A DNA stretch of 64,000 bases from a virus (lineage: Duplodnaviria > Heunggongvirae > Uroviricota > Caudoviricetes): positions 41,348 to 105,347 of the IMG/VR virus record IMGVR_UViG_3300025889_000082; one strand, written 5' to 3'. This document shows positions 46,146 to 62,935 of the stretch, one piece after another. A model generated the notes under the pieces. The model had not been told where the DNA came from and did no database searches. It worked only from the letters and a program-made list of their open reading frames with translations. Within the stretch, counting starts at the first letter, position 1; each line of letters begins with the position of its first letter. The position numbers were made by a program, and so were the translations under genes.

Positions 46146-47264
46146 ATGTCTTGTTCAAATTGCCCTCCTGAGGCTTGTTATAATGGATGTGTAGAGATTG
46201 TATCTGATCAATGTGTTAGATATACAGGTCTTGACAGTGTTCCATTAAACATAACTTATGGAGATAATATTCAAGTAGTTATACAAAATGTAATTGATAA
46301 CCTAGTTCCTTTATTAGATGGAACAGGTGATAAGATTACTATAGCATCAGGAATACGCTGTGCTATATTAAATGGTTACTTACCTACTCCAGTAGATACA
46401 GATCAGTGGACTTCTGAACAGTTATTTCAATCATTAGTTAAAGTGGTTTGTGATTTACAAGATCAGATCACAGCAATTGATGCTGAGATAGCTACATTAA
46501 ATGCTGATTACAATATAGATTGTCTTAATGATGTAACATCTAGTTCCAACACTCATGACGTTGTCCAAGCTATCATAAGCAAACTTTGTGAAACAGTGGC
46601 TAGTTTAGCTGCATTAGAACTTGATGTAGCAACAAACTATGTTAAGTTAGCAGACTTAGATGCTTTGATTGCAGCATATTTGGCAGCTCATTCAGGTGGA
46701 TCTTCTAATCAGCAATATTTAAAAATGGTTCCATATGTAGCATATGAATACTATGGATCATTAGATAACTTTGATGGGTCAGGAATTGGCATCCCAGCAA
46801 ATGGTTTCTTTAAAGTATATTTATGTAATGGTCTTAATGGCACTCCTGATAAAAGAGGACGTGTTACTGTTGGAGCTATTCAAAATGTACCAGGTGGTCC
46901 ACTAGATGCTGCAGTAAATCCAGTAAATGCTGGTAATCCAAATTATGCTTTGTATAATACAGCTGGTGAAAATACAGTGACGCTTATTACATCCCAACTT
47001 CCTGTTCACTCACATTCAGCAGTTGCTGTATCTACTGCTAGTGTATCTCCAAATCCTCATAGCCATAGTTATGCAGGGGTACAAGTTCCTTCAGGTGGAG
47101 GAGATGGAAGTAGAACTTCTGTACCAGTTGATAAAACTACAAGTTCTGTAGATCTTACTGTTACTGTAGATACAGGTGTTACAATTGGTAATGCAGGTAA
47201 TGGGGCACCTCATGCAAACATACAACCTGTCATAGCTGCATATTATATCATGTATATTCCTTAA
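46146..47264 (+). CDS. tail fiber protein with C-terminal phage tail-collar (MdpB-like) domain
   Basis: TPDKRGRVTVGA (collar PDLRGR). GENTVTLITSQLPVHSHS (GsetvtLt..qmPaHtHt). Terminal GNGAPHANIQPVIAAYYIMYI (aHnNmqPYl.lnyiI). A second HSHS follows. Cys-rich N-terminus CSNCPPEACYNGCVEIVSDQCVRYTG. Confidence 0.65.
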   Translation: MSCSNCPPEACYNGCVEIVSDQCVRYTGLDSVPLNITYGDNIQVVIQNVIDNLVPLLDGTGDKITIASGIRCAILNGYLPTPVDTDQWTSEQLFQSLVKVVCDLQDQITAIDAEIATLNADYNIDCLNDVTSSSNTHDVVQAIISKLCETVASLAALELDVATNYVKLADLDALIAAYLAAHSGGSSNQQYLKMVPYVAYEYYGSLDNFDGSGIGIPANGFFKVYLCNGLNGTPDKRGRVTVGAIQNVPGGPLDAAVNPVNAGNPNYALYNTAGENTVTLITSQLPVHSHSAVAVSTASVSPNPHSHSYAGVQVPSGGGDGSRTSVPVDKTTSSVDLTVTVDTGVTIGNAGNGAPHANIQPVIAAYYIMYIP

Positions 47265-47283: not shown

Positions 47284-50200
47284 ATGGCTTGTTTACCAGG
47301 AATGCCTTGCTATGGTGCTCAGCAAAAAGAGTGCTGTCCTGAGGTTAATTCAAATTGCGTAGATTATTCTGGACCTAATTTACCTTGTTCAGGTGTGCAA
47401 ACACATGACTGCCTTACCACTGCTATTGAGAAAATAGATGATAAATTGTGTAAGGTGGGGAATGGTACGTCTGGTACATCAGGATCATCAGGTCAAACAT
47501 ATGGAACAGCAGGTACCTCTGGTTCTTCAGGAACTAGTGGAAATGATGGTTCTTCTGGTTCTGCAGGTACTAGTGGTCAAACTGGTACATCAGGGACATC
47601 AGGTAGTTCTGGTAGCTCTGGTAGAACTTATGGTACATCAGGTACCTCTGGAACTTCTGGCTCATCAGGTAGTGCTGGCACTAGTGGTTCTTCTGGATCT
47701 AGTGGATCTAGTGGTTCTTCTGGATCATCAGGTTCATCAGGCACTTCTGCTTCTAGTGGTACTAGTGGATCTTCTGGGTCATCTGGTACTTCTGCAACTT
47801 CAGGATCCAGTGGTTCATCAGGATCAAGTGGATCTTCAGGATCTGCAGGAACTAGTGGTCAAGAAGGTACTTCAGGTTCAAGTGGTTCTTCTGGTATTTC
47901 TGGTGATAGATACTTTACAACATCAGCTGATTCTTTTACATTAGGTAATTCTGGTACATTAACTGTAGGCACAAACCTAGCATATACACCAGGACAATCC
48001 ATTATCATAGCACATGACGCTACCAATTATCAAGTGTCAACAGTATTATCATATAATGCTGGTACAGGTGCATTACAATTTTCTTCTCCTTCCTCAGTAG
48101 TAGGTTCTGGCACATACACTGCTTGGACCATCAACTTACAGGGGGCTGCAGGTGGTGATGGTTCTAGTGGAACTTCAGGTTCTTCTGGAACGTCAGGATC
48201 TAGTGGCTCTTCTGGTAGTAGTGGAACTAATGGTAGTTCAGGAACTAGTGGAACTAATGGTTCAAGTGGAACTAATGGTTCTTCTGGTACTAGTGCCACA
48301 TCTGGTTCTTCTGGTACTGCTGGAACAAGTGCTACATCAGGAAGTTCTGGTTCTTCTGGCACATCTGCCACTGCAGGAACTAGTGGATCTTCTGGCACAA
48401 GTGGTACCAATGGGTCTAGTGGTACAGCAGGATCATCAGGTACATCTGCTTCTTCTGGTACATCAGCAACGTCTGGGTCTAGTGGGTCTTCTGGTACTAG
48501 TGGGTCTTCTGGCTCAAGTGGTACTTCTGCTACTAGTGGTTCTTCTGGTACAGCAGGCACTAGTGGGTCTAGTGGTACAGTTGGCACTAGTGGAACATCA
48601 GGTTCTTCTGGTACTAATGGTTCAAGTGGAACTTCTGGTACTAGTGGTTCATCAGGTACAAGTGCTAGTTCTGGTTCCTCAGGTACAACTGGTACATCAG
48701 GTAGTTCAGGATCTTCAGGTACTAGTGGAACAAGTGGTACAAATGGTAGTTCAGGTACAAATGGATCCAGTGGTACAAATGGTTCTTCTGGTTTATCAGG
48801 AGATAGATATTTAACATCTTCCACAACAACTCTTACAATTGTATCTTCTGGAACAATTACATTTACAGTTGAAACAGGATTAGCATATAGTACATTACAA
48901 ACAGTTATTGTAGTACATGAAAACACCCATTACATGGAAGGAACAGTATTATCATATGATAGTGCTACTGGAGTAATGAGTGTTGATGTTACAAATGGTG
49001 TTGGATTAGGACTAACAGAATCTATGTGGACAGTGAACCTGTTAGGTGCTGCTGGTGGAGATGGCTCTTCAGGAACATCTGGTTCAGCTGGTACTAGTGG
49101 TACGTCTGGATCTTCTGGTTCAACAGGAACTTCTGGAACAACAGGAACTTCTGGCTCTTCTGGAACAAGTGGTTCTTCTGGAACTAGTGCAACTTCTGGT
49201 AGTTCTGGTACGTCTGGAACTAAGGGTACGTCTGGAACTTCAGGCATCAATGGTACCTCTGGTACAAGTGCAACTAGTGGTTCAAGTGGTTCTTCTGGTA
49301 CTTCTGGAACATCAGGTTCTTCTGGCTCATCTGGTACAGCTGGTTCTTCTGGTACATCAGGTACTAAGGGAACATCTGGTACCTCTGCATCATCTGGAAC
49401 GAGTGGTTCATCTGGCACTACAGGAACCTCTGGTACATCAGGCTCAACAGGTACTTCAGGAACAGCAGGATCTAGTGGTACAAGTGCAAGTAGTGGATCA
49501 TCTGGATCAAGTGGAACAACTGGTACTTCAGGATCAAGTGGTATCAATGGTACTTCAGGAACTGCTGGTACATCAGGTTCAACAGGAACATCAGGAACAT
49601 CAGCTACTTCTGGTTCAAGTGGTACAACAGGAACAAGTGGTTCTTCTGGAACAACAGGAACTAGTGGAAGTTCTGGTACTGCTGGATTAAGTGGAGATAG
49701 ATATCAAACAACTTCAACAACTCCTTTCACTCTTGGTAATAATGGTACAATAACAATTGGAACAGGACTTGCTTATACAGCAGCTCAGGTTATTCTTATT
49801 GTATATGATTTAACTCACTATCAAGAGTCTGTAATCATATCTTATAATGCTGGTAGTGGATCTTTGCAATTTGATACTCCTACAAGTACAGTTGGTTCAG
49901 GTACATTTAGTTCTTGGACTGTAAACTTATCTGGTGCTAGTGGTGGAGATGGATCTTCTGGTACATCAGGATCTGCTGGTACTAGTGGAGCAAAAGGTAC
50001 AAGTGGTACTGCAGGCACATCTGGATCTAGTGGTACATCTGCATCTTCAGGATCATCTGGCACTAGTGGAACGTCAGGTTCAAGTGGTACATCAGGTACC
50101 TCTGGTAGTAGTGGTACTTCTGGTACAAAGGGAACTTCTGGTACTTCAGGTGCTAATGGAACCTCTGGTACAGCAGGTACGTCTGGTTCTTCTGGAACAA

Positions 50201-51909
50201 CTGGTACTTCAGGTTCAGCTGGTACTAGTGGAACTAATGGAACAAATGGCTCTAGTGGTACAAGTGGTTTACAAGGTACATCAGGAACAAGTGGAGCAAA
50301 TGGGTCATCAGGCACATCAGGTACTAATGGTTCTAGTGGAACAACAGGTACATCTGGTAGCTCAGGAACAAGTGGAGTTAGTGGTTCCTCTGGTACGTCT
50401 GGTACAAAAGGTACAAGTGGTACTAGTGGTACGAGTGGTTCTAGTGGTACTTCTGGTACATCTGGTTCTAGTGGAACTACTGGTACTAGTGGTAGTAGTG
50501 GAACAAGTGGTACTAGTGGCAGTAGTGGTACTTCTGGTACATCTGGTACAAGTGGTAGTAGTGGAACAAGTGGTACTAGAGGTACATCAGGATCTAGTGG
50601 TACTAGTGGAGCTGGAACTATTAGTGGTACATTGAACTACATAGCTAAGTTCACTCCTAATAGTACCACTGTAGGAAATAGTCAGATTTTTGATAATGGT
50701 ACTAATATTGGCTTTGGTACCAATTCTCCAAGTTACTTTGCTGATTTTCAAGTTAACAATACTTCTTTTGTATCAAGATTTAGAAACTTAAATACAACAA
50801 CTGATAGTGCTGGTTTATTGATTCAGGCAGGTGTTAATTCTGGAAATGAAATATTGCTTTTAAAGAATGCAGCAGGAACAGCAAGAATGGGTGTCTATGC
50901 AAATGGATATGTAGGTCTTGGTACTGAAACTCCTACTGTTAGATTTAATATGGAAAGTTCAGGATCTTCATATTCTGATCCTAGTACAAATGATTGTTCA
51001 ACAATAGCATTATATAACTCAAATAGTTCATCTACCACAGCACATTCAATTCTTTCATTAAGAACAAATCTTGGAACTGGTGGTAATCCTTTTGTATCTT
51101 GGGATATACGTGGTGTTACAGGTTATTCAATGGGTATTGACAATGCTGACTCAGATAAACTTAAAATTGCTGCAACATGGTCTAATGTTGCTAGCTCAAC
51201 AATTCTTACATTTACAACATCTGGTGCTGCAACTTTTGCATCCACTGTAACAGCTTCTTCTTTGATTAAATCAGGTGGTACTAGTTCTCAATTCTTGAAA
51301 GCTGATGGTAGTGTAGATTCAAATACATATTTAACAACATCTTCTGCAGCTTCTACATATGTTGCTAAGAGTGGAGATACAATGACTGGAACATTAAACT
51401 TTTCTAATAACTTAGGAACTTGTTTATATGGTTCTATGGCAGATAATGATCAGTGGAGAATATATGCTGGTAATACAGGAAGCAATGCTGGATATTTAGA
51501 AATAGCTACAGCAGATGATGCTAGTGAACCAATTTATGTAAGACAATATAGTGGTGTGTTTGGTTCTTTGGTAAGAACATTTACATTGTTAGATGGTAGT
51601 GGTAACACTACAATGCCAGGAACTGTAACAGCTACAGCATTCTATGAGTCTTCAGATGCTACATTGAAAAAACTAATTACAGATGATTTCACTGTAGAAG
51701 GAATTGAAAACATTGCATCAAAGCTTTATATAAAAGATGGTAGACAAGAAGTGGGATATTTTGCACAAGATGTTCTACCTTTGTTACCAAATGCTGTTGC
51801 TAAGAATGATGCAGGCATATTAAGTTTATCATATAAGGAAGTGCATACAGCTAAGATAGCTAGACTTGAAAAGAGAGTTAAAGAACTAGAATCTAAATTA
51901 GGAATCTAA
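47284..51909 (+). CDS. giant tail fiber: Cys-rich N-anchor, four proline-free Gly-X-Y (X,Y=Ser/Thr) repeat blocks, three ~90-aa knob domains, distal domain and C-terminal S74 intramolecular-chaperone domain
   Basis: 1541 aa. About 245 G-[ST]-[ST] triplets (…GTSGSSGTSGNDGSSGSAGTSG…). The blocks are separated by three homologous GDRY(F/L/Q)T(T/S)S… knob domains. C-terminus is …YESSDATLKKLITDDFTVEGIENIASKLYIKDGRQEVGYFAQDV…, which matches the endosialidase/T5-LTF autocleaving chaperone (S-DxRLKK…). Confidence 0.7.
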   Translation: MACLPGMPCYGAQQKECCPEVNSNCVDYSGPNLPCSGVQTHDCLTTAIEKIDDKLCKVGNGTSGTSGSSGQTYGTAGTSGSSGTSGNDGSSGSAGTSGQTGTSGTSGSSGSSGRTYGTSGTSGTSGSSGSAGTSGSSGSSGSSGSSGSSGSSGTSASSGTSGSSGSSGTSATSGSSGSSGSSGSSGSAGTSGQEGTSGSSGSSGISGDRYFTTSADSFTLGNSGTLTVGTNLAYTPGQSIIIAHDATNYQVSTVLSYNAGTGALQFSSPSSVVGSGTYTAWTINLQGAAGGDGSSGTSGSSGTSGSSGSSGSSGTNGSSGTSGTNGSSGTNGSSGTSATSGSSGTAGTSATSGSSGSSGTSATAGTSGSSGTSGTNGSSGTAGSSGTSASSGTSATSGSSGSSGTSGSSGSSGTSATSGSSGTAGTSGSSGTVGTSGTSGSSGTNGSSGTSGTSGSSGTSASSGSSGTTGTSGSSGSSGTSGTSGTNGSSGTNGSSGTNGSSGLSGDRYLTSSTTTLTIVSSGTITFTVETGLAYSTLQTVIVVHENTHYMEGTVLSYDSATGVMSVDVTNGVGLGLTESMWTVNLLGAAGGDGSSGTSGSAGTSGTSGSSGSTGTSGTTGTSGSSGTSGSSGTSATSGSSGTSGTKGTSGTSGINGTSGTSATSGSSGSSGTSGTSGSSGSSGTAGSSGTSGTKGTSGTSASSGTSGSSGTTGTSGTSGSTGTSGTAGSSGTSASSGSSGSSGTTGTSGSSGINGTSGTAGTSGSTGTSGTSATSGSSGTTGTSGSSGTTGTSGSSGTAGLSGDRYQTTSTTPFTLGNNGTITIGTGLAYTAAQVILIVYDLTHYQESVIISYNAGSGSLQFDTPTSTVGSGTFSSWTVNLSGASGGDGSSGTSGSAGTSGAKGTSGTAGTSGSSGTSASSGSSGTSGTSGSSGTSGTSGSSGTSGTKGTSGTSGANGTSGTAGTSGSSGTTGTSGSAGTSGTNGTNGSSGTSGLQGTSGTSGANGSSGTSGTNGSSGTTGTSGSSGTSGVSGSSGTSGTKGTSGTSGTSGSSGTSGTSGSSGTTGTSGSSGTSGTSGSSGTSGTSGTSGSSGTSGTRGTSGSSGTSGAGTISGTLNYIAKFTPNSTTVGNSQIFDNGTNIGFGTNSPSYFADFQVNNTSFVSRFRNLNTTTDSAGLLIQAGVNSGNEILLLKNAAGTARMGVYANGYVGLGTETPTVRFNMESSGSSYSDPSTNDCSTIALYNSNSSSTTAHSILSLRTNLGTGGNPFVSWDIRGVTGYSMGIDNADSDKLKIAATWSNVASSTILTFTTSGAATFASTVTASSLIKSGGTSSQFLKADGSVDSNTYLTTSSAASTYVAKSGDTMTGTLNFSNNLGTCLYGSMADNDQWRIYAGNTGSNAGYLEIATADDASEPIYVRQYSGVFGSLVRTFTLLDGSGNTTMPGTVTATAFYESSDATLKKLITDDFTVEGIENIASKLYIKDGRQEVGYFAQDVLPLLPNAVAKNDAGILSLSYKEVHTAKIARLEKRVKELESKLGI
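47440..50620 (+). repeat. intragenic near-perfect 9/18-nt tandem repeats (ggt-ac/tc-t/agt) encoding the Gly-Ser/Thr triplets
   Basis: A 3-nt periodic, low-complexity region. It produces long spurious ORFs in all other frames on both strands. Confidence 0.8.
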
Positions 51910-54074
51910 TGAGTTGGAAATCAATAGCTGGAAATCAAACAATATCTAGAGCAAACCTTCAGAATGCTATAGATACTGGTGTGTTCATAGCAAAAAATGG
52001 TGTTCCTGGTACAGAGTCTAATAGACAGATAACCAAAGCAAATGCTCAAGACTATATATACACATGGGATCTTTATCCTTCTTTTTTAGCAGCAGCTTCT
52101 AATCAACTTCCTGTTAAACAAGAACTAGCTGTACAGTCTAATCAAGTGTATGCACAAGGAAGTACAACAATAGCTGTTGGAAATAATAATAGAAATTGGG
52201 TATATACTATACTTTCTAATTCTGGAGATAGCTGGGGATCAGTTGCTTCATCCACAGATAATAGATGTATACTAGCTGGAAGATCTTATAGTCCAGGTAG
52301 TGGAGGAGGAGGTCTTTGGGTATCTAATGACTATGGAGAAACATTTACAAGATTAGATTCTGTAATGAGTACCAATGATGCAGCACTGAGTACTGCTATG
52401 AATTCTTATGGTGATTATATGATTGCCACTAGACAAGTTGGATCTTTTGGTTCTCAAAGAGCTTATATATATTGGTCATATAATTCAGGAGTGAACTGGG
52501 CTACAGGATACCATGACACAATAGATTACAACTTTAATGGAGCTGCAATGTCTGGTGTTGGTGTATATGCTACAGTATTAGGTTCTGATGGAACTAGTTA
52601 TTATGTTTGGACATCTAATAGCTTTGGTTCTAGTTTTACTAAAACATATTTATGTGCTGGAACAAAAGTAGTACAAGGAGGATGTGTTGGTATGTCCAAG
52701 TCAGGGCAATATCAATTATTAACACCTCCTCAAGCATCTAGTCCAGATGTTGGTAATTTTTATGTTTCAAATGATTATGGATCATCTTGGACTACAGTTA
52801 ATTTAACACCTGTACCACTTGCTCCTAATGATACGTTCTATGGATGTTCTGTTTCTGCTGGAGGTGATTACATGACAGTAGCTGCTTATTCAAGTACATT
52901 AGGTCAATCTAGAACTTATATATCAAGTGATTGGGGAGTGAATTGGACTGTTATATCTGGAGCAGATGTTGCACAAGCTGTAGATAGTTCTGGACAATTT
53001 CAATATCAAAATGGTCGTGCATCAATAGATTATGGTAATACATGGTCAGGAGGACAATATGCATATGCTATTTCTGTAAATCCAACTACATATACCACTC
53101 CTTATATATATGGTCCATCAACAGGTGGTAATTTGTATAAATCTATTAATCAAGGAAATACTTATAGTGTTACCTCTTTGTCTGGATTTATAACTAAGGT
53201 GGCTACATCTGGTGGATCAAACAATGGTAAATATGTAGCTGCTATTGTAGACAACAATCCAGGAGGGTCTCCTAGCTATAATCTTTATAAGTCTAGTGAC
53301 TATGGGGCTAGTTGGTCTACAAACTTTTCATCATCTGGAGAAGTTATGGTATGTTGTGCTGTATCAGATGATGGAGTATATTGGTTTGCTGTTACATATA
53401 ATTCAGGAACAAATTTATCTTATATATATAGGTCTACTGATTCAGGAGCAAGTTGGCAGTATATGGGTTATATTTCTGGTCAAGCAATAAATTGTGCCAT
53501 GTCAAATATTGGGCAATATATAACTATGGTAGTAAGTACTCCTAATGGTGGATTTTATGATGCATATGTAGCTAACTCTTCTGACTATGGAGTGAATTGG
53601 ACAGGAGCAGCTTTTGATAGTTCAGGAAGAACATACAATGATATTGCTATATCTGGACATGGTAAGTTTAGAACATTTGTAAGTACAGATTCAGGAAACA
53701 CAGGTTGCAGAACATTTTATTCAGGTGACTATGGTGTAAACTGGTCAGAGATTTACTACAATGCAGGTTATGTTGCTACTAGCTGTGACATGGATGATTC
53801 AGGACGAGTTTGTTTGGCAGCTAATAACTCAAATGATAACACAGCTTCTCAAATATATTACACAATTAATGGATGGAGTTCTTATAGTACAAATTCTAGT
53901 TTGATGCCTTTCCCTTTTGCAGCTCCTATGATAACTGGTGTAAATGTATCTTCAGATGCTACATATTGGGCTCTTGTTTCAAACAATCAAGCTTATAGTT
54001 ATACATGTACAACAGGTAATGGAGTTTTCAATTATCAATACACAGGAATAACTTTTAATAGACTTAGTAAATAA
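51909..54074 (+). CDS. BNR/Asp-box repeat beta-propeller protein (sialidase/GH74-like fold); receptor-binding or glycan-degrading tail protein
   Basis: At least 12 Asp-box motifs (S-x-D-x-G-x-T/S-W): SNDYGETFT, YNSGVNWAT, SNSFGSSFT, SNDYGSSWT, SSDWGVNWT, SIDYGNTWS, SINQGNTYS, SSDYGASWS, STDSGASWQ, SSDYGVNWT, STDSGNTGC, SGDYGVNWS. They recur every ~45-55 aa. ATG overlaps the fiber stop. Confidence 0.65.
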   Translation: MSWKSIAGNQTISRANLQNAIDTGVFIAKNGVPGTESNRQITKANAQDYIYTWDLYPSFLAAASNQLPVKQELAVQSNQVYAQGSTTIAVGNNNRNWVYTILSNSGDSWGSVASSTDNRCILAGRSYSPGSGGGGLWVSNDYGETFTRLDSVMSTNDAALSTAMNSYGDYMIATRQVGSFGSQRAYIYWSYNSGVNWATGYHDTIDYNFNGAAMSGVGVYATVLGSDGTSYYVWTSNSFGSSFTKTYLCAGTKVVQGGCVGMSKSGQYQLLTPPQASSPDVGNFYVSNDYGSSWTTVNLTPVPLAPNDTFYGCSVSAGGDYMTVAAYSSTLGQSRTYISSDWGVNWTVISGADVAQAVDSSGQFQYQNGRASIDYGNTWSGGQYAYAISVNPTTYTTPYIYGPSTGGNLYKSINQGNTYSVTSLSGFITKVATSGGSNNGKYVAAIVDNNPGGSPSYNLYKSSDYGASWSTNFSSSGEVMVCCAVSDDGVYWFAVTYNSGTNLSYIYRSTDSGASWQYMGYISGQAINCAMSNIGQYITMVVSTPNGGFYDAYVANSSDYGVNWTGAAFDSSGRTYNDIAISGHGKFRTFVSTDSGNTGCRTFYSGDYGVNWSEIYYNAGYVATSCDMDDSGRVCLAANNSNDNTASQIYYTINGWSSYSTNSSLMPFPFAAPMITGVNVSSDATYWALVSNNQAYSYTCTTGNGVFNYQYTGITFNRLSK

Positions 54075-54084
54075 ATAAATCAAA

Positions 54085-54702
54085 ATGACAGTATTAGTAA
54101 CATTAACTTTAGCAGGGACAGATGTGGGTCCCTTTGATCTGTATTCAGATGCAGATGGGTATACAACTCCTCTAGCAACTGGTATATCTAGATCTTCTTT
54201 ATTGGCTGGATACAGTCTTGCAGGTGTTCCTGATGACGCTGCAGTTATAAGAGCTCAATCTACAGGAACTTGTACAAACTATTTAGACATGTATTTAAGT
54301 GGAGGAACTACCACTACTACTACATCTACATCTTCAACCACTACATCTACAACTACTGCAACACCATGTTTAACTGGTGATACAAGTGCCATTTCATCTT
54401 GTGGTGGTGGGGAATCAGCATTATTCACAGTAACTACAGGAAATACAGCTCTAATCACTCCAGGTGGGTATTACTATTCTGGAACTGGTACAAGAACTTA
54501 CACGTCTTATATTATGAATGCTGCTAATGATACAGTTTTGTATACATTCAACTATACACAAACAGGATCAACTCCAGGAACTTGGACATCTGACTTACCT
54601 TCTAATACATTACCTGCAGGTAGTTATCGCCTAAGAACAGACACAGTGAACTGTTTCACTAGCTCTGGTTCATTTAGCTTAAATGCTGCTTGTAATTCAT
54701 AA
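54085..54702 (+). CDS. hypothetical structural protein with GPFD N-module and poly-Thr linker
   Basis: N-terminus …AGTDVGPFDLYSDADGYT… resembles the N-terminus of ORF 62946 (…GGRTGPFDISDNLGT…). TTTTTSTSSTTTSTTTATP tract. Confidence 0.4.
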   Translation: MTVLVTLTLAGTDVGPFDLYSDADGYTTPLATGISRSSLLAGYSLAGVPDDAAVIRAQSTGTCTNYLDMYLSGGTTTTTTSTSSTTTSTTTATPCLTGDTSAISSCGGGESALFTVTTGNTALITPGGYYYSGTGTRTYTSYIMNAANDTVLYTFNYTQTGSTPGTWTSDLPSNTLPAGSYRLRTDTVNCFTSSGSFSLNAACNS

Positions 54703-54708
54703 ATAGTT

Positions 54709-54770
54709 AAAAACCCCTGTTTGTTGGTTTACAGATGGTCTCCCCTAGGGTCTCTACCCTGGGGGTTTTT
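54709..54770 (+). terminator. GC-rich stem-loop with flanking A and T tracts (terminator-like)
   Basis: aaaacccc…(ccctaggg internal palindrome)…ggggttttt. Confidence 0.35.
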
Positions 54771-54884: not shown

Positions 54885-56135
54885 ATGTCTGAAAACCAAC
54901 CCCTTTTACAGCAGCTTCAGCAGATGTTACACTGGAAAAAATCAAAGAAATACTATGCTGAAAAGCTAGGAGTCACAGAAACTGAGATTGATGAATTGTT
55001 AGAAGAGATAAGAAAACAAGAAAGGGTTGTAGAAGATGCTGAGGTTGGGAACTACATATCTGATTTAGAGGACGTGGTTGTTAAGTTCATGGAGGATGTG
55101 AGCAAAGGAACAGGTGAGGTCATAGCAAATGTATCTCAAGAAATCAAGAGCTTAGAGGAACTTATAGAGAAATGTAAGATAGACACAGAGAAATGGGAAG
55201 TAACTAAATATGTACAAAACTTCTGGGGAAATGGAGAGAATCCCCACTGGCAGGTGAAAGCCTGGTTAGGAAAGAAGTCTACAGAGCAGGTGTTTCAAGA
55301 TAGCTTTGTAGACTTTTTAAGTTCATATGAGCCTGTGTGTCAAGCAATTGCAACTCCTAAGATAGAAGTGAATAAAGAGTTTGCAATGTTAATTATCAAC
55401 AAACAAGACTCCCATTTGAACAAGTATGATATTGATGGAGACAACAATATTACAAATAGATTAGCTCAGATTATGTACAAGGTTGAGGTGATTGCTTCTC
55501 AAGCAGAGATGACTAACAACCTAGAAACAATAACCTACATCATTGGTTCTGACGAGTTCAATAGTGAATATACCAACGCAACAACAAAAGGTACTCCTCA
55601 GCAAAATACACATACATACCATACTTCCTTTAAATATATCTGTGACCATGAAATTTTAATGATCTCAATGTTATTATCACATGCTCAACAGGTAGAGGTT
55701 ATATATGTTGCTGGGAACCATGATGAGTTTGTAGGATGGCACATGGTAAATTGGTTGAAGATGTTCTTCAGAGATGAACCAAGAGTAATTATAGATGATT
55801 CTCCTAAGTATAGAAAGTACGTAAGTTATGGTGACTCTGCAATGATGTTTAACCATGGAGACGCTATCAAGCCTGCTAAGCTAGCTGGTATATTCCCAAT
55901 GGAGTTTAAAGATAGTTGGTCTGGTCACAATAACTACTATATCTTCACAGGAGATAAACACCATGAAGTGAGCTTGGACTTCAATGGTATCAAGTTCTAT
56001 CAAATTCCAGCTTTCTCTAAAGCTAAGAGTTTATGGGATGACAAGATGGGACATGTATGTTCTAAAGCAGAAGTTACAGGGTTCCTCATTGAGTTTGATA
56101 ATGGAATGACAAATATATTCAAACAATATTTATAA
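54885..56135 (+). CDS. calcineurin-like metallophosphoesterase-domain protein
   Basis: C-terminal half carries VIYVAGNHDEF (GNH[DE]), FNHGD and FTGDKHHE, which resemble MPP metal-binding motifs. N-terminal coiled coil. Confidence 0.4.
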   Translation: MSENQPLLQQLQQMLHWKKSKKYYAEKLGVTETEIDELLEEIRKQERVVEDAEVGNYISDLEDVVVKFMEDVSKGTGEVIANVSQEIKSLEELIEKCKIDTEKWEVTKYVQNFWGNGENPHWQVKAWLGKKSTEQVFQDSFVDFLSSYEPVCQAIATPKIEVNKEFAMLIINKQDSHLNKYDIDGDNNITNRLAQIMYKVEVIASQAEMTNNLETITYIIGSDEFNSEYTNATTKGTPQQNTHTYHTSFKYICDHEILMISMLLSHAQQVEVIYVAGNHDEFVGWHMVNWLKMFFRDEPRVIIDDSPKYRKYVSYGDSAMMFNHGDAIKPAKLAGIFPMEFKDSWSGHNNYYIFTGDKHHEVSLDFNGIKFYQIPAFSKAKSLWDDKMGHVCSKAEVTGFLIEFDNGMTNIFKQYL

Positions 56136-56872
56136 TGGCTACATTAAGAAAAATGGTCTCAGATGTGCGTGCAACACATAAACTGTTATCAACAGACAAC
56201 TTGATAACAGATAGAGTTGTTGCGTCTGAGATTAAGAATAACACAATTTTACTGATAAAGAGAGAAACAAATCTTAGAAAGCTTTGGGCTACTGACACTG
56301 TATTCCAAACGCTTCCTTGTTTAGAGATGATAGAGGTACCTATTTCTGATTGCTGTGAGTATGTTGATCCTTGCACTGTTGCTAGGAGTAAATACAAACT
56401 TCCACGTATCAGTGAGGGTAACTATCAATATCTAATCCAAGGTGTTTACTCTATCAACGCAATGGGTGGTAAGGGTAAAAGATTTAAAGAAATCACAATT
56501 AACAGATACTTAAATTTATTAAAACTGCCCATCATTAAGAATGAACAATACTATTGGATAGCTAATGGTGGATATTTATATGTTAATAACCCTAACTTAA
56601 AATCAGTTAGAATTTCTGCTTTCTTTGAAGAAGATGTTCCAAATGACATATTATATCCTCAAGAGTGTGCATGTGGTGCTACTCCTCCTGTGAGTGATGA
56701 AGACTATTGCATGAATCCTTTAGATAAAGAATTTGGATGTCCTGGTTACTTGGAAAAGCAAGTGTTAGACCTAACATCTCAAAAACTTTTAAGTACTTAT
56801 TTCAACATTAAAACAGATCAAACCTTTGAAGGTATAGATGGGCAAGCACCAAATGCTAAACCAACTAATTAA
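56135..56872 (+). CDS. hypothetical structural protein
   Basis: 245 aa; ATG overlaps the upstream stop. Confidence 0.4.
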   Translation: MATLRKMVSDVRATHKLLSTDNLITDRVVASEIKNNTILLIKRETNLRKLWATDTVFQTLPCLEMIEVPISDCCEYVDPCTVARSKYKLPRISEGNYQYLIQGVYSINAMGGKGKRFKEITINRYLNLLKLPIIKNEQYYWIANGGYLYVNNPNLKSVRISAFFEEDVPNDILYPQECACGATPPVSDEDYCMNPLDKEFGCPGYLEKQVLDLTSQKLLSTYFNIKTDQTFEGIDGQAPNAKPTN

Positions 56873-57354: not shown

Positions 57355-58326
57355 ATGGCATATTATTACAAATACAATTTTGTCTCTCCTGAGCCAATCT
57401 ACTCTATTGTTAAAGAAGAGTTAAAATCTTACTTTGACACAGGAGCAGTAGATGATTTGATGTTCCCAACTTACTTAGACAAATGTCTACAGAAGTTAGG
57501 TAGATCTAGTTATGTTATTGCTGAACAAACATTAAATGTTGAAGATTTTGAAGCTAGGCTTCCTGATAACTTCTTTGCTGTAAGAGAGGCTTGGATGTGT
57601 ACTGAGATTCCTCAACTACCTTACCAAACAGCAAATTCATTCTACTCTCAAGCTGCCACAGCCACTACAATTCAGGTTAGTCCTATTACAACAAACTGTG
57701 CTATTCCTAGCCCTTGTTGTGGAAATGTTGGATGTGATGGTAGTTGTATGCCTGAGATTATAGAAACTGTATACAAAACTAATACACAAGCTGCAAGGGG
57801 AATTAGAAAAGAATATCTATTAAAACCAGGTAATATATCTTGTCAGGGTAGATGTGATGTAAGTTATACAGATGCTTGGCAGTTCTATACAAACGTACCA
57901 CCTGTGAGAGAATTCACTCCTGGATCTGCAGGATATGATAGTTTTGATATTAGAGATAATAAGTTTGTTACAAACTTTAGATGTGGTATTGTTCACATGA
58001 TATTTTATGCTACAGATTATGATGCTGTAGGTAATCAATTAATTCCTAACAACTATCGTATTAGAGAGTACATTGAAGCTTTCCTTAAATATAAGGTGTT
58101 TGAAATATTAGCTAATCAGATTAATGATGAAACATTTAATCAAATACAACAGAAGTTAGGTTATTACAAGCAACTTTCAGAAGAAGCCTTTATCATGGCA
58201 TACACTGAGATTAAGAAACAAGATGCATGGACTAAGCAAAGAAGAGTAAGAAATGACTTACAACGTTTTGCACAATATGAATTACCAAATAGAAGCAGCA
58301 GATATGGCAATGGATGGAACAGCTAA
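57355..58326 (+). CDS. hypothetical structural protein with Cys cluster
   Basis: 323 aa. CAIPSPCCGNVGCDGSCMPE. Confidence 0.4.
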   Translation: MAYYYKYNFVSPEPIYSIVKEELKSYFDTGAVDDLMFPTYLDKCLQKLGRSSYVIAEQTLNVEDFEARLPDNFFAVREAWMCTEIPQLPYQTANSFYSQAATATTIQVSPITTNCAIPSPCCGNVGCDGSCMPEIIETVYKTNTQAARGIRKEYLLKPGNISCQGRCDVSYTDAWQFYTNVPPVREFTPGSAGYDSFDIRDNKFVTNFRCGIVHMIFYATDYDAVGNQLIPNNYRIREYIEAFLKYKVFEILANQINDETFNQIQQKLGYYKQLSEEAFIMAYTEIKKQDAWTKQRRVRNDLQRFAQYELPNRSSRYGNGWNS

Positions 58327-61300
58327 CGAGGGAACATCTAACATAAGACAAGAGTACAATCTTGGTAGAGTTGGATTAGACATGGACTCTTCTGTAAATC
58401 AAGTGCAGAAAGGTAAGCTTTCTTATGCTCTAAACGCAGCATTAGAAAACTTTGATGCTAACTCAGTGAGTTATCAGAATGAGCCAAGTAATGAATTTTG
58501 TTTAGAGTTTCCTGAAGGTTATCACCTTATTGGAACTCATTTTATACAAGAGAAAGGTAAACATATATTCTTCTTAGCTAATCCTGAAACAGGAGGAAGT
58601 GAGATAGGATATATGAACAATAATGATTGTGTATATCATACACTTTGCACTCCTATTCCTAATACAGAATTAACTGTTTGTGCTAACTCTGAATGTTTAA
58701 ACTTTGATATAAACTATCCAATACATAAAGCTGTACATAAGATTACAAACTGTACTACAGAAGTATATTGGACTGATGGATTAAATCCAAGAAGATTTAT
58801 TAATATTGAACAAGTTCCTTATATCACCACTTATTTAGATGATGGAATTTGTGATCCTGTTATCCAAGCAACATTAGATTGTAACAAGTTAAAGGTACAA
58901 CCTAATTTTCAAGTACCTACTATAAATATTACTGATATTGTTGTAGGAGGAGATTTAAAAGCTGGTGCCTATCAGTTTGCTATTCAATATTCTAATGCAT
59001 CAGGAGATGCTTACACATCATATTATTCTGTAACTAATCCTACATCTATTGCAAATACAGAGATAACAACTCCTGATTTTCAATACTCTGTAGGAAAGTC
59101 TATTGTATTGAGTATTGATAACTTAGATGTTACAGGATATTATCAATACTTTAACTTAGCTGTTATAAAGACTATCAATAATGGAACCACTGTAGAGTTA
59201 GTGGGAACATATAACATCCAAGAAAAGTCTGTAAATATTACTTATACAGGTCAGAATACAACTCAAATTCCTTTGAGTCTTGGTGATATACTTGAAAAGT
59301 TTCCTTATTATGATATTGCCAAGGACGTAACAAATGTACAAGACGTTATTGTTTGGGACAATTTAACTTCTATAGATAGGATTAACTATCAAAGTATTGC
59401 TAATAAGATTCAACTTCAGTGGGAAACATACAAATTACCAGCTAACAATACGTATGCTCAAGGTTTCTATACTGCTAATCTAAGAGGGTATTTGAGAGAT
59501 GAGGTATATCCTTTTGAGATTGTATTCTTATTAGATAATGGTAAACAAACAGATGGATTCCATATTCCTGGTAGAGCTAAGAATTTCAACGAGCTATCTG
59601 AACCAGATGTAACAACAGCTAATCCAGACTATGTTGGTGATGGAACTCCACAACCATATTGGAAAATATATAATACAGCTAGTGTACTTGTAACTTATCC
59701 TGCTCCTACAGAAAATAGTCCTAAAATAGGTGAAGCTTATCCTTATCAATCTGGAGACTTTGCATATTGGGAGTCTACAGAAAGATATCCTTGTAATATA
59801 GATGTATGGGGAGATTTAGCAGATCAACCAATTAGACATCATAAATTTCCTGATGTTCTTGTAAGTCCCATATTTGAAACAGTATCAACAGACTTTACTG
59901 CTCCTGTTATGCAAAATAAAGCAACCTTTCCAATAGGTGTTAAAATAGATGTACAACAGATAGCATTTCTTATTCAGTCATCTAATTTGACGTCTGAACA
60001 GAAAGCATCTATTGTTGGATTTAAGATAGTGAGAGGTAATAGAAGTACAAATAAATCTATCATTGCAAAAGGTATATTAAGAAATGTAGGTAAATATACT
60101 AGAGAAGGTACAGATTATTATTATCCAAACTATCCATATAATGATCTTAATAAAGATCCTTTCTTACTTGAAGAAAACAATGCTTATAATTCTCAATGTG
60201 ATACATTTTCTATAACAGTTACTACTGCTGGTGTATTACAATATACAAATTGTAATACAGCAGAAGTAGATACATTAGAGTTTGATTCAAGCACTAAAAC
60301 TATTTGTTCTATTACTCTTCCTGTATTAAATAGTGGGGTTGCTACATTTGAAAATATTACAGCCAGTACTTATACAATTAGAAACACATCTAACCCAATT
60401 TTTGGTTTATCTGTTACTTTTAATTATACAGATAGTATTACAGGAACTTTACAAAATATAACTGTACCTAAATTACAATCTAGAACAATTAACTCTATTA
60501 CTGTACCTGTAAAAATATCAGGAACAGATAGTTATACACTCGTAGCTAACAATACAGGTCAAAACACAAATTGTTACCCTGATCAGTTAAATGGATTTAA
60601 TAATATTGATTCTCCATATAGACAAGTATTTAATTCACCAGAAACTTCGTTTGGACAACCTAACTTAGGAAATGTTCTTAAATTAGAAAGTGTATTGTAT
60701 GGTGGAGGTAAGGCACATTTTGTTGAAGTGCAAAAGCACTCTATGTATAAGTTGCTTACAAAACAAACACAAATAGAGGCTTTAAATGCTAGTAAAAAAA
60801 TAGCTGATCTTGGAGGATTTAGTTCTACAGCATTCTTTACAGGATACCAAACATACTTACAAATCTTCCTTAATGGTATAAGTAGAAAGAATTTTACATA
60901 TTCTTTTAACTCTATATCTAGCTATGACTATAGTGCAGAAATACCTAATAATCAAGGAGTTAAACAAAGAGAGCTTGATAAATGTCAATATGTATTCCCA
61001 GGTGTACAAAATGTAGGAGACAATCATGATCTTAATAACTGGAATAGAGAATCATCTGTTTATACTAAAAGTATTGATAGTAGAGATGATGTACCTTATA
61101 CAGTGGCACCCCTTCCTTATCCTAATCAAACTCCTTCTCTTGTCGTAGCAGGTGTTAGTCAAATATCTGATGACTCAAGATTTACTATTTCACAAAAAAA
61201 CAATTGTGCAGCTCCTGAATTTCAAGAAGATATTAAAGTAGTATCTTATTATGGTTCTATAAAGACCATCAACAATAATCAGTGGGGACAAATATATTCC

Positions 61301-62935
61301 TATCAAACTATTGATACAGGATTCCAAAGAATATTTAGTGCATTACCTACTCTAGATTCTGAAGTAATATTTGGTGGTGATACATATATTGGTAAATTTG
61401 GATTTAAAACTAAATTACCATTCTTTATTGATAACAGAGTGGGAGCTCCTGATGACAGTGATATATATTATGATGAACTTGGTAACATAGCTTATCCACA
61501 ATATTGGTATTCAGCAAGGTCTATCTTGTCTGATTATTATGTGGGAAGCACGTTAATGAAAAACATCATATCTACCAAAGCACATCATTTTGATTGTTCT
61601 AATGATGATATTGTAGATACTAGTACAACAACTACATCTACAACTCCTCAACCTGGATCAGTAATAGCTAGTTCTTTAAACTATATATATGATGGTAAGA
61701 TGTATTTATTTGCATATGGTATACCTTATTATTATGTAGAAAGTTCTATAAATGTGGACTTACGTCAAGCATTCAATAACTTAGAAGGTGATTTTTACCC
61801 ACACGTAAGCTCTGGTATTCCTGATCAATGGTTCCAAGAAAGCAGAGTGCCTATTGCTTTAGACAATACCTATTATTATAACACTACTTATTCTAAACAA
61901 AATGTAGAGAATTATTTCTCTCATTTACCTTCAGATTGGAAACAACAGTTATGTTATACATATTTTCCATTTAGAGCAATCTATTCTGATAAACAAGAAA
62001 GTTATTCTGATAACAGAATAAATAGTTGGTTGATATATCGTCCATTAAGTTTCTTTGATTTTCCTCAAAACTATGGCAATCTAATATCTTTAGATGGTAT
62101 TCAAAATAAAGCTACATTAGCTAGGTTTGAAAACAAAACTTTACTGTATGGTAACTTATTAACAATTGATACAAGTAACCCTCAAGCAGCTTATTTAGGA
62201 AATCCTTCATTATTTAGTAGTACCAATCCACCTCCAGTTGATTTTGCTGAGACAGATCTTGGGTTTGTAGGATGTCAAAACAAGATGTTACTCAAGATAC
62301 CACAAGGACAAATTACAATAGATGCTAAGAGAGGACAGATATTCTTAATTCAAGGTACCCAAGCACAAGATATTTCTGGGTTTGGATCTGGTCTTAATAG
62401 ATTCTTTACAGATCATTTGGCATTTGAAATATTAAGATACTTTCCAACAGTTGATACAGATAACCATTTCAAAAATATTGGTATTCATGGTGTGTTTGAT
62501 AGTAAGTTTGATAGAGTAATTATAACCAAATTAGACTACATTCCTCAACCAGGAAAAGAAGTATTCTATGATGAGGTGACTAAACAGTTTTATGTAAATC
62601 AACCAATAGCTGGTGATATTGCAGTTAAGAAGTATGTAGAAGTTACAAACTTAGAGTACTTCTGTAATAAATCATGGACTGCATCATTTAACTTAAATAC
62701 AAAGAGTTGGGTGAGTTTTCATACATATCTTCCTAACTTCTATATAGGAGAAAACAACTTCTTCTATTCTGGTTTAAATGAAGGTTGTGATATCACAGCA
62801 GTGGCAGTTACAGAGATTCCTTCTCCAACCACAACAACTACTACTACAATAATTGTATACTGCAACTTGACTGGTACAGCAGTAGTAACAGGATATCCTT
62901 GTGCATTAGAAGGAACAGTTGAAGAACAACCTTAA
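58304..62935 (+). CDS. giant (~1540 aa) beta-rich virion protein (tail, baseplate or host-recognition); start uncertain (58253, 58304 or 58382)
   Basis: N/T/Y/G-rich and non-helical, so not a tape-measure-like protein. Poly-Thr tracts TSTTTTSTTPQP and PSPTTTTTTTII. Confidence 0.5.
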   Translation: MAMDGTANEGTSNIRQEYNLGRVGLDMDSSVNQVQKGKLSYALNAALENFDANSVSYQNEPSNEFCLEFPEGYHLIGTHFIQEKGKHIFFLANPETGGSEIGYMNNNDCVYHTLCTPIPNTELTVCANSECLNFDINYPIHKAVHKITNCTTEVYWTDGLNPRRFINIEQVPYITTYLDDGICDPVIQATLDCNKLKVQPNFQVPTINITDIVVGGDLKAGAYQFAIQYSNASGDAYTSYYSVTNPTSIANTEITTPDFQYSVGKSIVLSIDNLDVTGYYQYFNLAVIKTINNGTTVELVGTYNIQEKSVNITYTGQNTTQIPLSLGDILEKFPYYDIAKDVTNVQDVIVWDNLTSIDRINYQSIANKIQLQWETYKLPANNTYAQGFYTANLRGYLRDEVYPFEIVFLLDNGKQTDGFHIPGRAKNFNELSEPDVTTANPDYVGDGTPQPYWKIYNTASVLVTYPAPTENSPKIGEAYPYQSGDFAYWESTERYPCNIDVWGDLADQPIRHHKFPDVLVSPIFETVSTDFTAPVMQNKATFPIGVKIDVQQIAFLIQSSNLTSEQKASIVGFKIVRGNRSTNKSIIAKGILRNVGKYTREGTDYYYPNYPYNDLNKDPFLLEENNAYNSQCDTFSITVTTAGVLQYTNCNTAEVDTLEFDSSTKTICSITLPVLNSGVATFENITASTYTIRNTSNPIFGLSVTFNYTDSITGTLQNITVPKLQSRTINSITVPVKISGTDSYTLVANNTGQNTNCYPDQLNGFNNIDSPYRQVFNSPETSFGQPNLGNVLKLESVLYGGGKAHFVEVQKHSMYKLLTKQTQIEALNASKKIADLGGFSSTAFFTGYQTYLQIFLNGISRKNFTYSFNSISSYDYSAEIPNNQGVKQRELDKCQYVFPGVQNVGDNHDLNNWNRESSVYTKSIDSRDDVPYTVAPLPYPNQTPSLVVAGVSQISDDSRFTISQKNNCAAPEFQEDIKVVSYYGSIKTINNNQWGQIYSYQTIDTGFQRIFSALPTLDSEVIFGGDTYIGKFGFKTKLPFFIDNRVGAPDDSDIYYDELGNIAYPQYWYSARSILSDYYVGSTLMKNIISTKAHHFDCSNDDIVDTSTTTTSTTPQPGSVIASSLNYIYDGKMYLFAYGIPYYYVESSINVDLRQAFNNLEGDFYPHVSSGIPDQWFQESRVPIALDNTYYYNTTYSKQNVENYFSHLPSDWKQQLCYTYFPFRAIYSDKQESYSDNRINSWLIYRPLSFFDFPQNYGNLISLDGIQNKATLARFENKTLLYGNLLTIDTSNPQAAYLGNPSLFSSTNPPPVDFAETDLGFVGCQNKMLLKIPQGQITIDAKRGQIFLIQGTQAQDISGFGSGLNRFFTDHLAFEILRYFPTVDTDNHFKNIGIHGVFDSKFDRVIITKLDYIPQPGKEVFYDEVTKQFYVNQPIAGDIAVKKYVEVTNLEYFCNKSWTASFNLNTKSWVSFHTYLPNFYIGENNFFYSGLNEGCDITAVAVTEIPSPTTTTTTTIIVYCNLTGTAVVTGYPCALEGTVEEQP

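Follow-up and report, generated by a model that had tools for sequence, protein, structure and literature searches.

Tail-associated host recognition on a β-propeller platform, whether binding or catalytic, is represented by the K1F endosialidase, by Gp45 of the staphylococcal phage phi11 and by the tail fibre of phage P68, all of which are five- or six-bladed single propellers that reside within trimeric spikes. In the T2-type phages (T2, PP01, S16; Straboviridae), the N-terminus of the gp38 protein seats it on the tip of the gp37 fibre, while its hypervariable remainder sets the host range (PMC12892980). The tail fibres of the crassviruses are multi-protein assemblies that are mounted on gp22 (PMC10172136). 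A gene arrangement reminiscent of the gp37-gp38 pair is present in the T4-like Morganella phage vB_Mm5, in which a fibre with an S74-like C-terminus is followed by the overlapping gene for a gp38-like "receptor-recognizing protein".

The locus that we describe here is part of a stretch of 64,000 nucleotides (referred to as the window) taken from the IMG/VR virus record IMGVR_UViG_3300025889_000082. This DNA belongs to a distant, uncultured crAss-like phage, as its gene products match the Pfam families Crass_capsid, P22_portal, CrAss_Ring_2, CrAss_Ring_1 and crAss_MUZ. A megablast comparison of the 13-kb structural region with 50,697 deposited phage genomes returned nothing, and no tRNA genes were found within the window. 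Positioned between the tail-fibre genes and the ring genes is a reading frame for a 721-amino-acid protein (Table 1). Its ATG is preceded, at a distance of 5 nt, by the sequence AGGA and shares one base with the stop codon of the long fibre gene, an overlap to which the original prediction had already drawn attention. Because of this overlapping start, and because the genes form one transcription unit that extends to the hairpin at 54742, the 721-amino-acid protein would be made together with the collagen-like fibre. The latter has a Cys-rich N-terminus and long G-X-Y tracts; it further contains three knob inserts as well as a distal domain that is not of the collagen type and, at its C-terminus, a putative chaperone domain.

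Table 1. Features of the fibre cassette; positions refer to the window.
Feature	Position	Strand	Evidence or remark
372-aa tail-fibre protein, Cys-rich N-terminus	46146..47264	+	PHROG tail-fibre matches, E about 2.5e-14
1541-aa collagen-like tail fibre	47284..51909	+	Pfam Collagen E=1.3e-93; PHROG tail-fibre families
Putative S74-type intramolecular chaperone, fibre aa 1457-1541	51652..51906	+	S-D-x-x-x-K Ser/Lys motif
TAATG junction	51907..51911	+	fibre stop TAA 51907-51909, ATG 51909-51911, one base in common
721-aa adaptor and double Asp-box propeller CDS, stop codon included	51909..54074	+	ORF list, translation
N-terminal adaptor, aa 1-75, mostly short helices	51909..52133	+	most conserved part, entropy 0.62
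First seven-bladed Asp-box propeller, aa 76-383, blades 1-7	52134..53057	+	
Second seven-bladed Asp-box propeller, aa 384-721, blades 8-14	53058..54071	+	model, blade cuts
205-aa protein, last gene of the fibre cassette	54085..54702	+	poly-Thr/Ser linker GGTTTTTTSTSSTTTSTTTATP
Terminator-like hairpin, cassette end	54742..54765	+	10-bp stem, 7 G-C pairs, then T run

Homologues of the propeller protein were recovered from metagenomic sources; there are 97 of them, about 80 of which are full length at 720 to 757 amino acids. Neither the whole protein nor the consensus of its N-terminal adaptor yielded a tblastn match among the 50,697 deposited phage genomes, the family alignment, when scanned against 185,579 reference genomes, revealed no relative, and PHROGs and INPHARED contain no match to the protein. 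Sequence searches for similarity to any characterised receptor-binding protein were likewise negative, and the only name borne by the NCBI-sourced cluster members is "hypothetical protein".

An AlphaFold2 (AF2) model of the protein (pLDDT 86.8; pTM 0.87) displays four-stranded antiparallel blades in a propeller arrangement, and thus bears out the fold for which the original prediction had asked structure prediction to vouch. Following the adaptor, two consecutive propellers are formed, each of them with seven blades according to both the model and the blade cuts, which settles in favor of seven the earlier choice between two six- or seven-bladed propellers. The Asp-boxes map to the loops that connect strands C and D in the AF2 model, as is expected of BNR propellers, in which the motif lies between the third and fourth strands of a blade. 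Their number had been given as twelve, with a spacing of about 50 residues; the spacing holds, and the count is a fair reading of the 11 in-register boxes, but the true number of repeats is 14 when the 721-amino-acid protein is cut at its predicted blades. Only four boxes, those at residues 287, 372, 462 and 509, conform exactly to S-x-D-x-G-x-[TS]-W, and the relaxed pattern [ST]-x-[DN]-x-G-x-x-[WFY] finds 11 matches, compared with a mean of 0.36 and a maximum of four in 2000 composition-matched shuffles. One of these matches (residue 278) is out of register, while an additional box at residue 236 (SNSFGSSF) is in register and meets a looser pattern only. The in-register boxes follow one another at intervals of 51, 46, 51, 52, 33, 40, 50, 47, 48 and 48 residues (median 48); they are clear in blades 2 to 12 and degenerate at the three remaining positions, i.e., in blades 1, 13 and 14. 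The expected periodicity of the motifs is thereby found in 14 in-register repeats. The two propellers can be aligned with each other at about 28% identity in several registers, and no trimerisation element is evident in the protein. Among the Pfam models, BNR_6 scores 20.8 bits against the window protein, which is under its cut-off of 27, and precomputed matches to PF15899, PF15902 or PF02012 are present in many of the homologues. The best TM-score reached by any of the viral models in BFVD against this fold is 0.40.

Among the known propeller families, the GH74 xyloglucanases are alike in their 7+7 tandem propellers, their Asp-box blades and their length of about 700 amino acids. However, only one propeller superposes on GH74 structures (296 residues; TM-scores of 0.25 to 0.31), so the geometry of the cleft between the propellers, where catalysis takes place in GH74, differs. 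Furthermore, the protein studied here carries an additional N-terminal adaptor, a search of the PDB sequences with the family profile finds no GH74 enzyme even at E ≤ 10, and the sequence conservation within the family provides no evident counterpart of the GH74 catalytic Asp pair. The enzymes of GH33 and GH58 possess a six-bladed propeller, whereas the arrangement here is 7+7; the best sialidase in the PDB profile search is the exo-alpha-sialidase 7lbu at E=1.4, and the family alignment holds no invariant Arg/Tyr/Glu set outside the repeat motifs that could correspond to the Arg triad and nucleophile pair of these enzymes. Ycf48 (8am5) appears in the same search at E=1.2, and is a single seven-bladed propeller as opposed to the double one found here. 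Among the solved structures, SorCS2 alone is matched significantly by the profile (E=3e-7; sortilin/VPS10, PF15902), a value that is the sum of weak repeat-level segments. The VPS10 proteins share the Asp-box propeller and are non-enzymatic ligand binders, and many members of the present family have PF15902 matches; nevertheless, the VPS10 domain consists of one ten-bladed propeller with 10CC modules behind it, whereas two seven-bladed propellers are present here. The K1F, phi11 Gp45 and P68 proteins show no sequence similarity to the protein under study, which differs from them in that it is encoded as a polypeptide of its own, is equipped with an adaptor and has two seven-bladed propellers as its head. 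The original prediction was right to hold that neither the exact fold family nor the activity could be assigned from the sequence alone.

Conservation is distributed very unevenly along the protein. The mean column entropy rises from 0.62 in the N-terminal region to 1.32 in the first and 1.55 in the second propeller; the latter is the more variable half, in particular between residues 520 and 680, and the entropy amounts to about 2.0 bits at residues 541-680. Within the blades, conservation is seen in the inner A strands, in the A-B loops and in the loops that bear the Asp-box, while the B-C loops, the D-A loops and the outer D strands vary. The variable loops are assigned to the "top face" by general propeller convention. 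The adaptor itself has no match in Pfam, PHROGs or INPHARED, and yet a phmmer search of 1.84 billion representatives (E ≤ 1e-3) traced it in 236 clusters, in nearly all of which it occupies residues 1-72. These proteins range from 75 to 855 amino acids in length, and their C-termini are unrelated to each other; single and double Asp-box propellers, a DUF5122 propeller and Cys-rich knobs all occur as heads behind the adaptor, and the C-terminal parts are highly diverse overall and rich in poly-Thr linkers and Cys-rich knobs. There is one copy of the adaptor per locus. Two matches of the search, P0179 and P0236, turned out to be compositional artefacts once their sequences were read; P0179 is a 4050-amino-acid repeat adhesin with 29 "copies" of the adaptor match.

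The partner upstream of the adaptor is remarkably constant. In all 22 loci inspected (13 of them distinct), a same-strand fibre reading frame with an S74-like end lies directly upstream of the adaptor gene, and the gap between the two genes measures between -25 and +3 bp in 18 of the loci, the remainder having one small reading frame in between. Pfam Peptidase_S74 (PF13884) matches the fibre of the window with 17.3 bits (E=0.0058), short of the cut-off of 22, in an alignment that sets in exactly at the SD motif; the homologous fibre of locus L005 surpasses the cut-off with 25.2 bits. The S-D-x-x-x-K motif is kept in all upstream fibres examined, and tblastn places S74-type ends of this kind at the C-termini of T4-like and T5-like tail fibres.

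A close relative of the window phage (L006) reveals how quickly this cassette changes. Its capsid protein is 99.4% identical to that of the window and its ring and muzzle proteins are 80-97% identical, while its long fibre comprises 490 instead of 1541 amino acids, and its propeller protein is 462 instead of 721 amino acids long and shares 32% identity with the window protein. The propeller protein thus diverges between the two phages as fast as the fibre does. The 372-amino-acid fibre encoded upstream of the long fibre is 65% identical in L006. A likeness between the N-termini of this shorter fibre and the long fibre is marginal (E=0.017) and was not used as evidence.

Taken together, these data suggest that the product of the propeller gene is probably a receptor-binding adhesin of the tail-fibre apparatus of an uncultured crAss-like podophage, and that it would be borne by the virion. 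The receptor-binding role envisaged in the original prediction draws support from the cassette swap in L006, from the conserved N-terminus and variable C-terminus of the protein, from an adaptor that is common to diverse proteins and from the S74-type fibre that is always found upstream. In our best reading, the propeller protein may be viewed as a modular adhesin that is analogous, not homologous, to gp38 of the T2-type phages. Both have a conserved N-terminal region and a hypervariable remainder, which is exchangeable here, and the gene lies, as does that of gp38, directly downstream of, and coupled to, a gene for a chaperone-ending fibre, a position it holds in each of the 22 loci. Homology to gp38 was not detected (the gp38-like protein of phage vB_Mm5 is matched in BLASTP at E=4), and the small polyglycine sandwich of gp38 contrasts with a head of about 650 amino acids built from two seven-bladed propellers. 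Moreover, the T2-type phages are myoviruses whereas the phage studied here is a crAss-like podovirus, in which attachment to the fibre tip is presumed.

Mechanistically, one can envision that the propeller protein, co-produced with the collagen-like long fibre, is docked onto the fibre assembly by its 75-amino-acid adaptor. A candidate docking site would be the fibre tip that is left once the S74-type C-terminal chaperone has cleaved itself off. The two seven-bladed propellers might then offer their variable loops to a ligand on the host surface, most probably a glycan, and binding without catalysis is the mode that we favor. The adaptor would render the head exchangeable, and varied heads at the same genomic position could re-tune host range. 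A co-variation analysis of the adaptor and the neighbouring chaperone domain across the 13 distinct loci gave a Spearman rho of 0.11, which is not significant; a specific contact between these two elements is therefore not supported.

The original prediction had also entertained a depolymerising activity. A tail-associated glycoside hydrolase or lyase that cuts capsular or O-antigen polysaccharide in the manner of the endosialidase tailspikes or GH74, be it by means of a single propeller, of the pair or of the cleft that separates the two, is in our estimation unlikely. The structural and profile comparisons with GH74 and the sialidases described above speak against it, an NCBIfam match reaches 36 bits where the cut-off is 175, and the protein contains only five Glu residues. 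The invariant acidic residues E144, D157, D359 and D683 all fall within an Asp-box or within the repeated A-strand motif, and, judged by the sequence conservation within the family, no invariant acidic pair exists beyond these structural motifs. Variability is greatest in the loops of the face that usually carries the active site or the ligand (assigned by propeller convention). This part of the prediction is thus not supported.

A place outside the tail fibres appears distinctly improbable. In this scenario, the protein would decorate the capsid or collar and bind environmental glycans such as those of mucus or particles, or act at the surface of the infected cell. The head fibres of crassviruses, which are thought to bind external molecules (PMC10172136), set a precedent for such a role, no co-variation links the adaptor to the fibre domain next to it, and proteins with Asp-box propellers occur widely, in varied contexts, among large phages and giant viruses. 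Against this scenario stand the position of the gene directly after an S74-type fibre at every locus, mostly in overlapping or abutting frames, and a divergence that tracks the fibre cassette while the capsid genes are near identical. Even less probable, in our view, is a fibre-assembly factor or transient cap that helps to fold the upstream fibre or shields its tip, and that does not stay in the mature virion. A gene that lies immediately 3' of the fibre gene and whose start codon overlaps the fibre stop is indeed typical of fibre chaperones; downstream chaperones of Alteromonas phages have been described as transient caps (PMC10579305), and gp38 of T4 is a released chaperone (PMC12892980). 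However, the upstream fibres of the loci studied here already end in a predicted intramolecular chaperone whose Ser/Lys motif is intact, a protein of 721 amino acids with two propellers far exceeds known fibre chaperones in size, and the protein diverges as quickly as the fibre itself. In addition, the diverse poly-Thr- and Cys-rich C-termini behind the adaptor suit exposed binding modules rather than a conserved folding role.

Returning to the virion-borne adhesin as the preferred reading, a broader proposal can be advanced tentatively, and we consider it possible though doubtful. The 75-amino-acid adaptor and the S74-type fibre end may constitute a widespread but hitherto undescribed "plug-in head" system in uncultured phages of the crAss-like group and in further environmental phages, in which the adaptor would cap the fibre end after self-cleavage of the chaperone, and heads would be swapped by recombination at the gene boundary, thereby changing host range. 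The double seven-bladed head would then represent a novel architecture for receptor binding, in which the two propellers are set in a geometry of their own.

Most likely, the protein performs an ordinary role, that of swappable host recognition, with an undescribed architecture that combines a short docking domain with two seven-bladed propellers. The biology is unsurprising in kind, since phages routinely swap their receptor-binding heads and binders built on propellers have precedents; these findings are of value for annotation and tool-building, not for new concepts. How crAss-like phages recognize their hosts is poorly understood, and the majority of them have not been cultured; a recognition module that is modelled with confidence and is clearly exchangeable offers a concrete handle on this process. 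With 236 clusters that are absent from Pfam, PHROGs and the deposited phage genomes, the adaptor could serve to tag host-range genes in metagenomes, and expressed propeller heads could be used to probe environmental samples for hosts or ligands.

The gene that follows the propeller gene encodes a 205-amino-acid protein with the poly-Thr linker that had been predicted for the next downstream product. When it is compared with its counterpart in L006, only the first 72 amino acids are conserved (54%). The N-terminus of this protein also resembles that of a 288-amino-acid protein encoded further downstream in the window (62946-63812), with 28% identity over 96 amino acids (E=2e-9).

The window derives from a distant crAss-like phage whose capsid, portal, ring and muzzle proteins are recognised by Pfam, and five elements, including the gene of the propeller protein, lie between its capsid and ring genes (see table). 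The open reading frame of the original prediction is real, and its ATG (51909-51911) does share a base with the TAA stop codon of the long fibre gene (TAATG), with an AGGA sequence located 5 nt 5' of the ATG; the predicted poly-Thr protein corresponds to the 205-aa product. The propeller protein is acidic (pI 4.6) and strongly enriched in Ser, Gly, Thr, Asn and Tyr, while containing only five Glu residues.

Features of the fibre cassette and its surroundings, in window coordinates, with the counterparts found at the closely related locus L006
Feature	Position	Properties	Basis	L006 counterpart
P22-type portal	35925-38516		Pfam	
Crass_capsid	40492-42045		Pfam	
372-aa fibre protein	46146-47264	372 aa		65% identical
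Long fibre	47284-51909	1541 aa; TAA stop at 51907-51909	Pfam Collagen (E=1.3e-93); many PHROG tail-fibre families	490 aa
Fibre insert 1	47902-48153	fibre aa 207-290		
Fibre insert 2	48799-49053	fibre aa 506-590		
Fibre insert 3	49693-49938	fibre aa 804-885		
Propeller protein	51909-54074 (+)	721 aa; two propellers	ORF list and translation	462 aa, one propeller; 32% identical
N-terminal domain (adaptor)	aa 1-75	small, mainly helical	AlphaFold2 model	
Propeller 1	roughly aa 76-383	blades 1-7	AlphaFold2 model	
Propeller 2	roughly aa 384-721	blades 8-14	AlphaFold2 model	
Small downstream protein	54085- (start)	205 aa; poly-Thr/Ser linker		conserved over first 72 aa only
Strong terminator-like hairpin	54742-54765			
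CrAss_Ring_2	56135-56872		Pfam	
CrAss_Ring_1	57355-58326		Pfam	
crAss muzzle protein	58253-62935		Pfam	

The strict Asp-box pattern (S-x-D-x-G-x-[TS]-W) occurs four times in the propeller protein and a relaxed version ([ST]-x-[DN]-x-G-x-x-[WFY]) 11 times; the latter was found on average 0.36 times, and at most four times, in 2000 composition-matched shuffles. An AlphaFold2 model built from an alignment of 39 full-length homologues (mean pLDDT 86.8, pTM 0.87) exhibits the two propellers that had been predicted, with seven blades each, four strands per blade, and the Asp-boxes positioned in the loops connecting strands 3 and 4. Splitting the sequence at the blades of this model and aligning the pieces revealed 14 in-register repeats with a median spacing of 48 aa, in which blades 2-12 have a clear Asp-box and blades 1, 13 and 14 a degenerate one. 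The twelve motifs initially counted were a reasonable reading of a sequence with periodic repeats, but the actual repeat number is 14. None of the viral models in BFVD matched this structure above a TM-score of 0.40.

Pfam detected only BNR_6 in the propeller protein, below threshold, and neither a PHROGs search nor a tblastn search of 50,697 deposited phage genomes gave a match. The sole match of the family profile among all PDB sequences was the VPS10 domain of SorCS2 (E=3e-7); Ycf48 (E=1.2) and a sialidase (E=1.4) scored weakly, and no GH74 chain was matched even at E<=10. The NCBIfam model 'F510_1955 glycosylhydrolase' reached 36 bits against a cut-off of 175. The protein cannot be assigned to GH33, GH58, GH74 or Ycf48, and the suggested link to sialidases, GH74 enzymes and Ycf48 is unsupported beyond the common superfold. 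Judged by its sequence, the protein is best described as an Asp-box propeller of generic type whose repeats are sortilin-like. Distant Asp-box propeller proteins (25-34% identity) are encoded at IMG/VR loci L018-L090, and such proteins are common in giant-virus metagenome bins (GVMAG contigs) and on very large phage contigs; 157 of 225 candidate Asp-box propeller stretches were confirmed.

In a family of some 80 full-length homologues, sequence conservation declines from the N- to the C-terminus: mean entropy rises from 0.62 over aa 1-75 to 1.32 in propeller 1 and 1.55 in propeller 2, where it reaches about 2.0 near aa 541-680. Within the blades, conservation is concentrated in the inner A strands and in the A-B and Asp-box loops, and variation in the outer D strands and in the B-C and D-A loops. 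Under the convention normally applied to propellers, these variable loops would form the ligand face.

At its C-terminus, the long fibre appears to bear the hallmarks of a Peptidase S74 intramolecular chaperone: an S-D-x-x-x-K motif (Ser1457/Lys1462), a GY.AQ motif after it and a terminal coiled-coil-like helix. Its Pfam S74 score lies below threshold (E=0.0058), that of the homologous fibre end at locus L005 above it, and tblastn identified like C-termini in T5-like L-shaped tail fibres and a T4-like distal fibre. A phmmer search with aa 1-78 of the propeller protein against 1.84 billion representative proteins (E<=1e-3) recovered 236 clusters, in nearly all of which the adaptor occupies residues 1-72 of proteins of 75-855 aa; searches of Pfam, PHROGs and deposited phage genomes with this domain were negative. 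It is joined to double or single Asp-box propellers, to a DUF5122 propeller (cluster P0187), or to unassigned Cys-rich modules, often preceded by poly-Thr linkers. Each locus has one adaptor gene. In 22 of 22 loci, representing 13 distinct contexts, this gene is directly preceded on the same strand by a fibre ORF of 490 to 1541 aa with an S74-like end; in 18 of them the distance is -25 to +3 bp, and in the remainder one small ORF separates the two. Such intervening ORFs are found at L008 (7591-7998; 135 aa, Pfam DUF7936, poly-Thr/Ser tail) and L011 (6633-6953; 106 aa).

Across the 13 distinct loci, adaptor identity correlates with that of its own head (rho 0.64) and not significantly with that of the adjacent chaperone domain (rho 0.11); evidently, the gene boundary is where recombination breaks. 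A specific adaptor-chaperone contact is not supported by these uncorrelated identities. Since conservation among the fibres extends over only about eight residues N-terminal to the predicted cleavage site, the adaptor may bind elsewhere.

A comparison of window positions 39171-63812 with L006 (ENA MUNK22-1_SAMEA4777372 scaffold_141, 76 kb) provides a clean natural case of cassette exchange in a crAss-like lineage. The capsid proteins are 99.4% identical, neighbouring structural proteins 94-98%, and ring and muzzle proteins 80-97%; strong divergence is limited to the fibre cassette, where the L006 propeller protein consists of a single propeller, a poly-Thr linker and a Cys-rich knob.

We suggest that the tail-fibre apparatus most likely includes the propeller protein as a distinct subunit for receptor binding. 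The receptor-binding role originally proposed is well supported by comparative genomics (the L006 swap, the entropy gradient, adaptor modularity and gene order), and these four lines of evidence point to a host-range module. The protein would be co-translated with the long fibre and anchored on the virion by its conserved adaptor, and its two propellers would offer variable loops to a host surface ligand; this ligand is probably a glycan, given the propeller fold and the aromatic-rich, acidic composition. Tail fibres of crassviruses are multi-protein assemblies on gp22 (PMC10172136). The propeller protein finds its closest functional parallel in the gp37-gp38 pair of T2-type phages, in which the gp37 tip carries gp38 and the gp38 N-terminus sets compatibility with gp37 (PMC12892980). 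In the T4-like Morganella phage vB_Mm5, whose distal fibre matches the S74-like end of the window fibre (34.7% identity, E=4e-5), the distal fibre gene is followed by an overlapping gene for a gp38-like 'receptor-recognizing protein'. This vB_Mm5 locus (PP397179.1, 104999-107687) encodes two successive gp38-like proteins, the first of them from a gene that shares 11 nt with the fibre gene. A BLASTP comparison of the adaptor with the vB_Mm5 gp38-like protein gave only E=4, and the likeness is one of organisation, not of homology. Phage host-recognition proteins are already known in kind; new here are the double seven-bladed Asp-box head and a hitherto undescribed N-terminal adaptor found widely among uncultured phages.

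Catalysis by Asp-box propellers is known from sialidases and GH74 enzymes, and in two distant relatives (P0092, P0094) Asp-box repeats are fused to an S74 domain in an endosialidase-like arrangement, so that the propeller protein might be a depolymerase. We consider this improbable and, on indirect evidence, favour binding over catalysis, because the invariant acidic residues (E144, D157, D359, D683) all reside within Asp-boxes or the repeated A-strand motif, the loops of the presumed ligand face show the lowest conservation in the protein, and the model does not reproduce GH74 cleft geometry. A function as fibre chaperone or cap, as reported for Alteromonas phage fibres (PMC10579305), is likewise unlikely, since the upstream fibres possess a chaperone domain of their own and the heads, large and diverse, are of an extracellular kind.

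Apart from the receptor-binding candidate, several features of the surrounding genes deserve mention. Three non-collagen inserts of ~85 aa, each beginning with GDRY and ending with W-T-[IV]-N-L, break the collagen-like long fibre and may be knobs or hinges along its shaft; the 490-aa fibre of L006 has one. The first ~96 aa of the 205-aa protein (54085-54372) resemble, at 28% identity (96 aa aligned, E=2e-9), the N-terminus (62946-63233) of a 288-aa protein encoded directly 3' of the muzzle gene; this looks like a second shared N-terminal module, separate from the adaptor of the propeller protein. A 416-aa protein (54885-56135) matching PHROG 704 'DNA repair exonuclease' (E=4.3e-45) is encoded within the structural module, flanked by the fibre cassette and the genes of the ring proteins and lying beyond the terminator and an intergenic gap. 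This is an odd location for a nuclease-like protein; its conservation in L006 is 81%. No tRNA genes were detected within the 64-kb window. Gene strand and GC skew both flip near 31-32 kb; minus-strand replication genes of the first half (DnaB-like helicase, ribonucleotide reductase, GHKL ATPase protein) stand opposite the structural genes of the plus strand. In the mechanical ORF listing, the Ring_1 and muzzle frames overlap by 74 nt (58253-58326); the true muzzle start is possibly further downstream, as the alignment with the L006 muzzle protein begins at residue 9 of the window protein.
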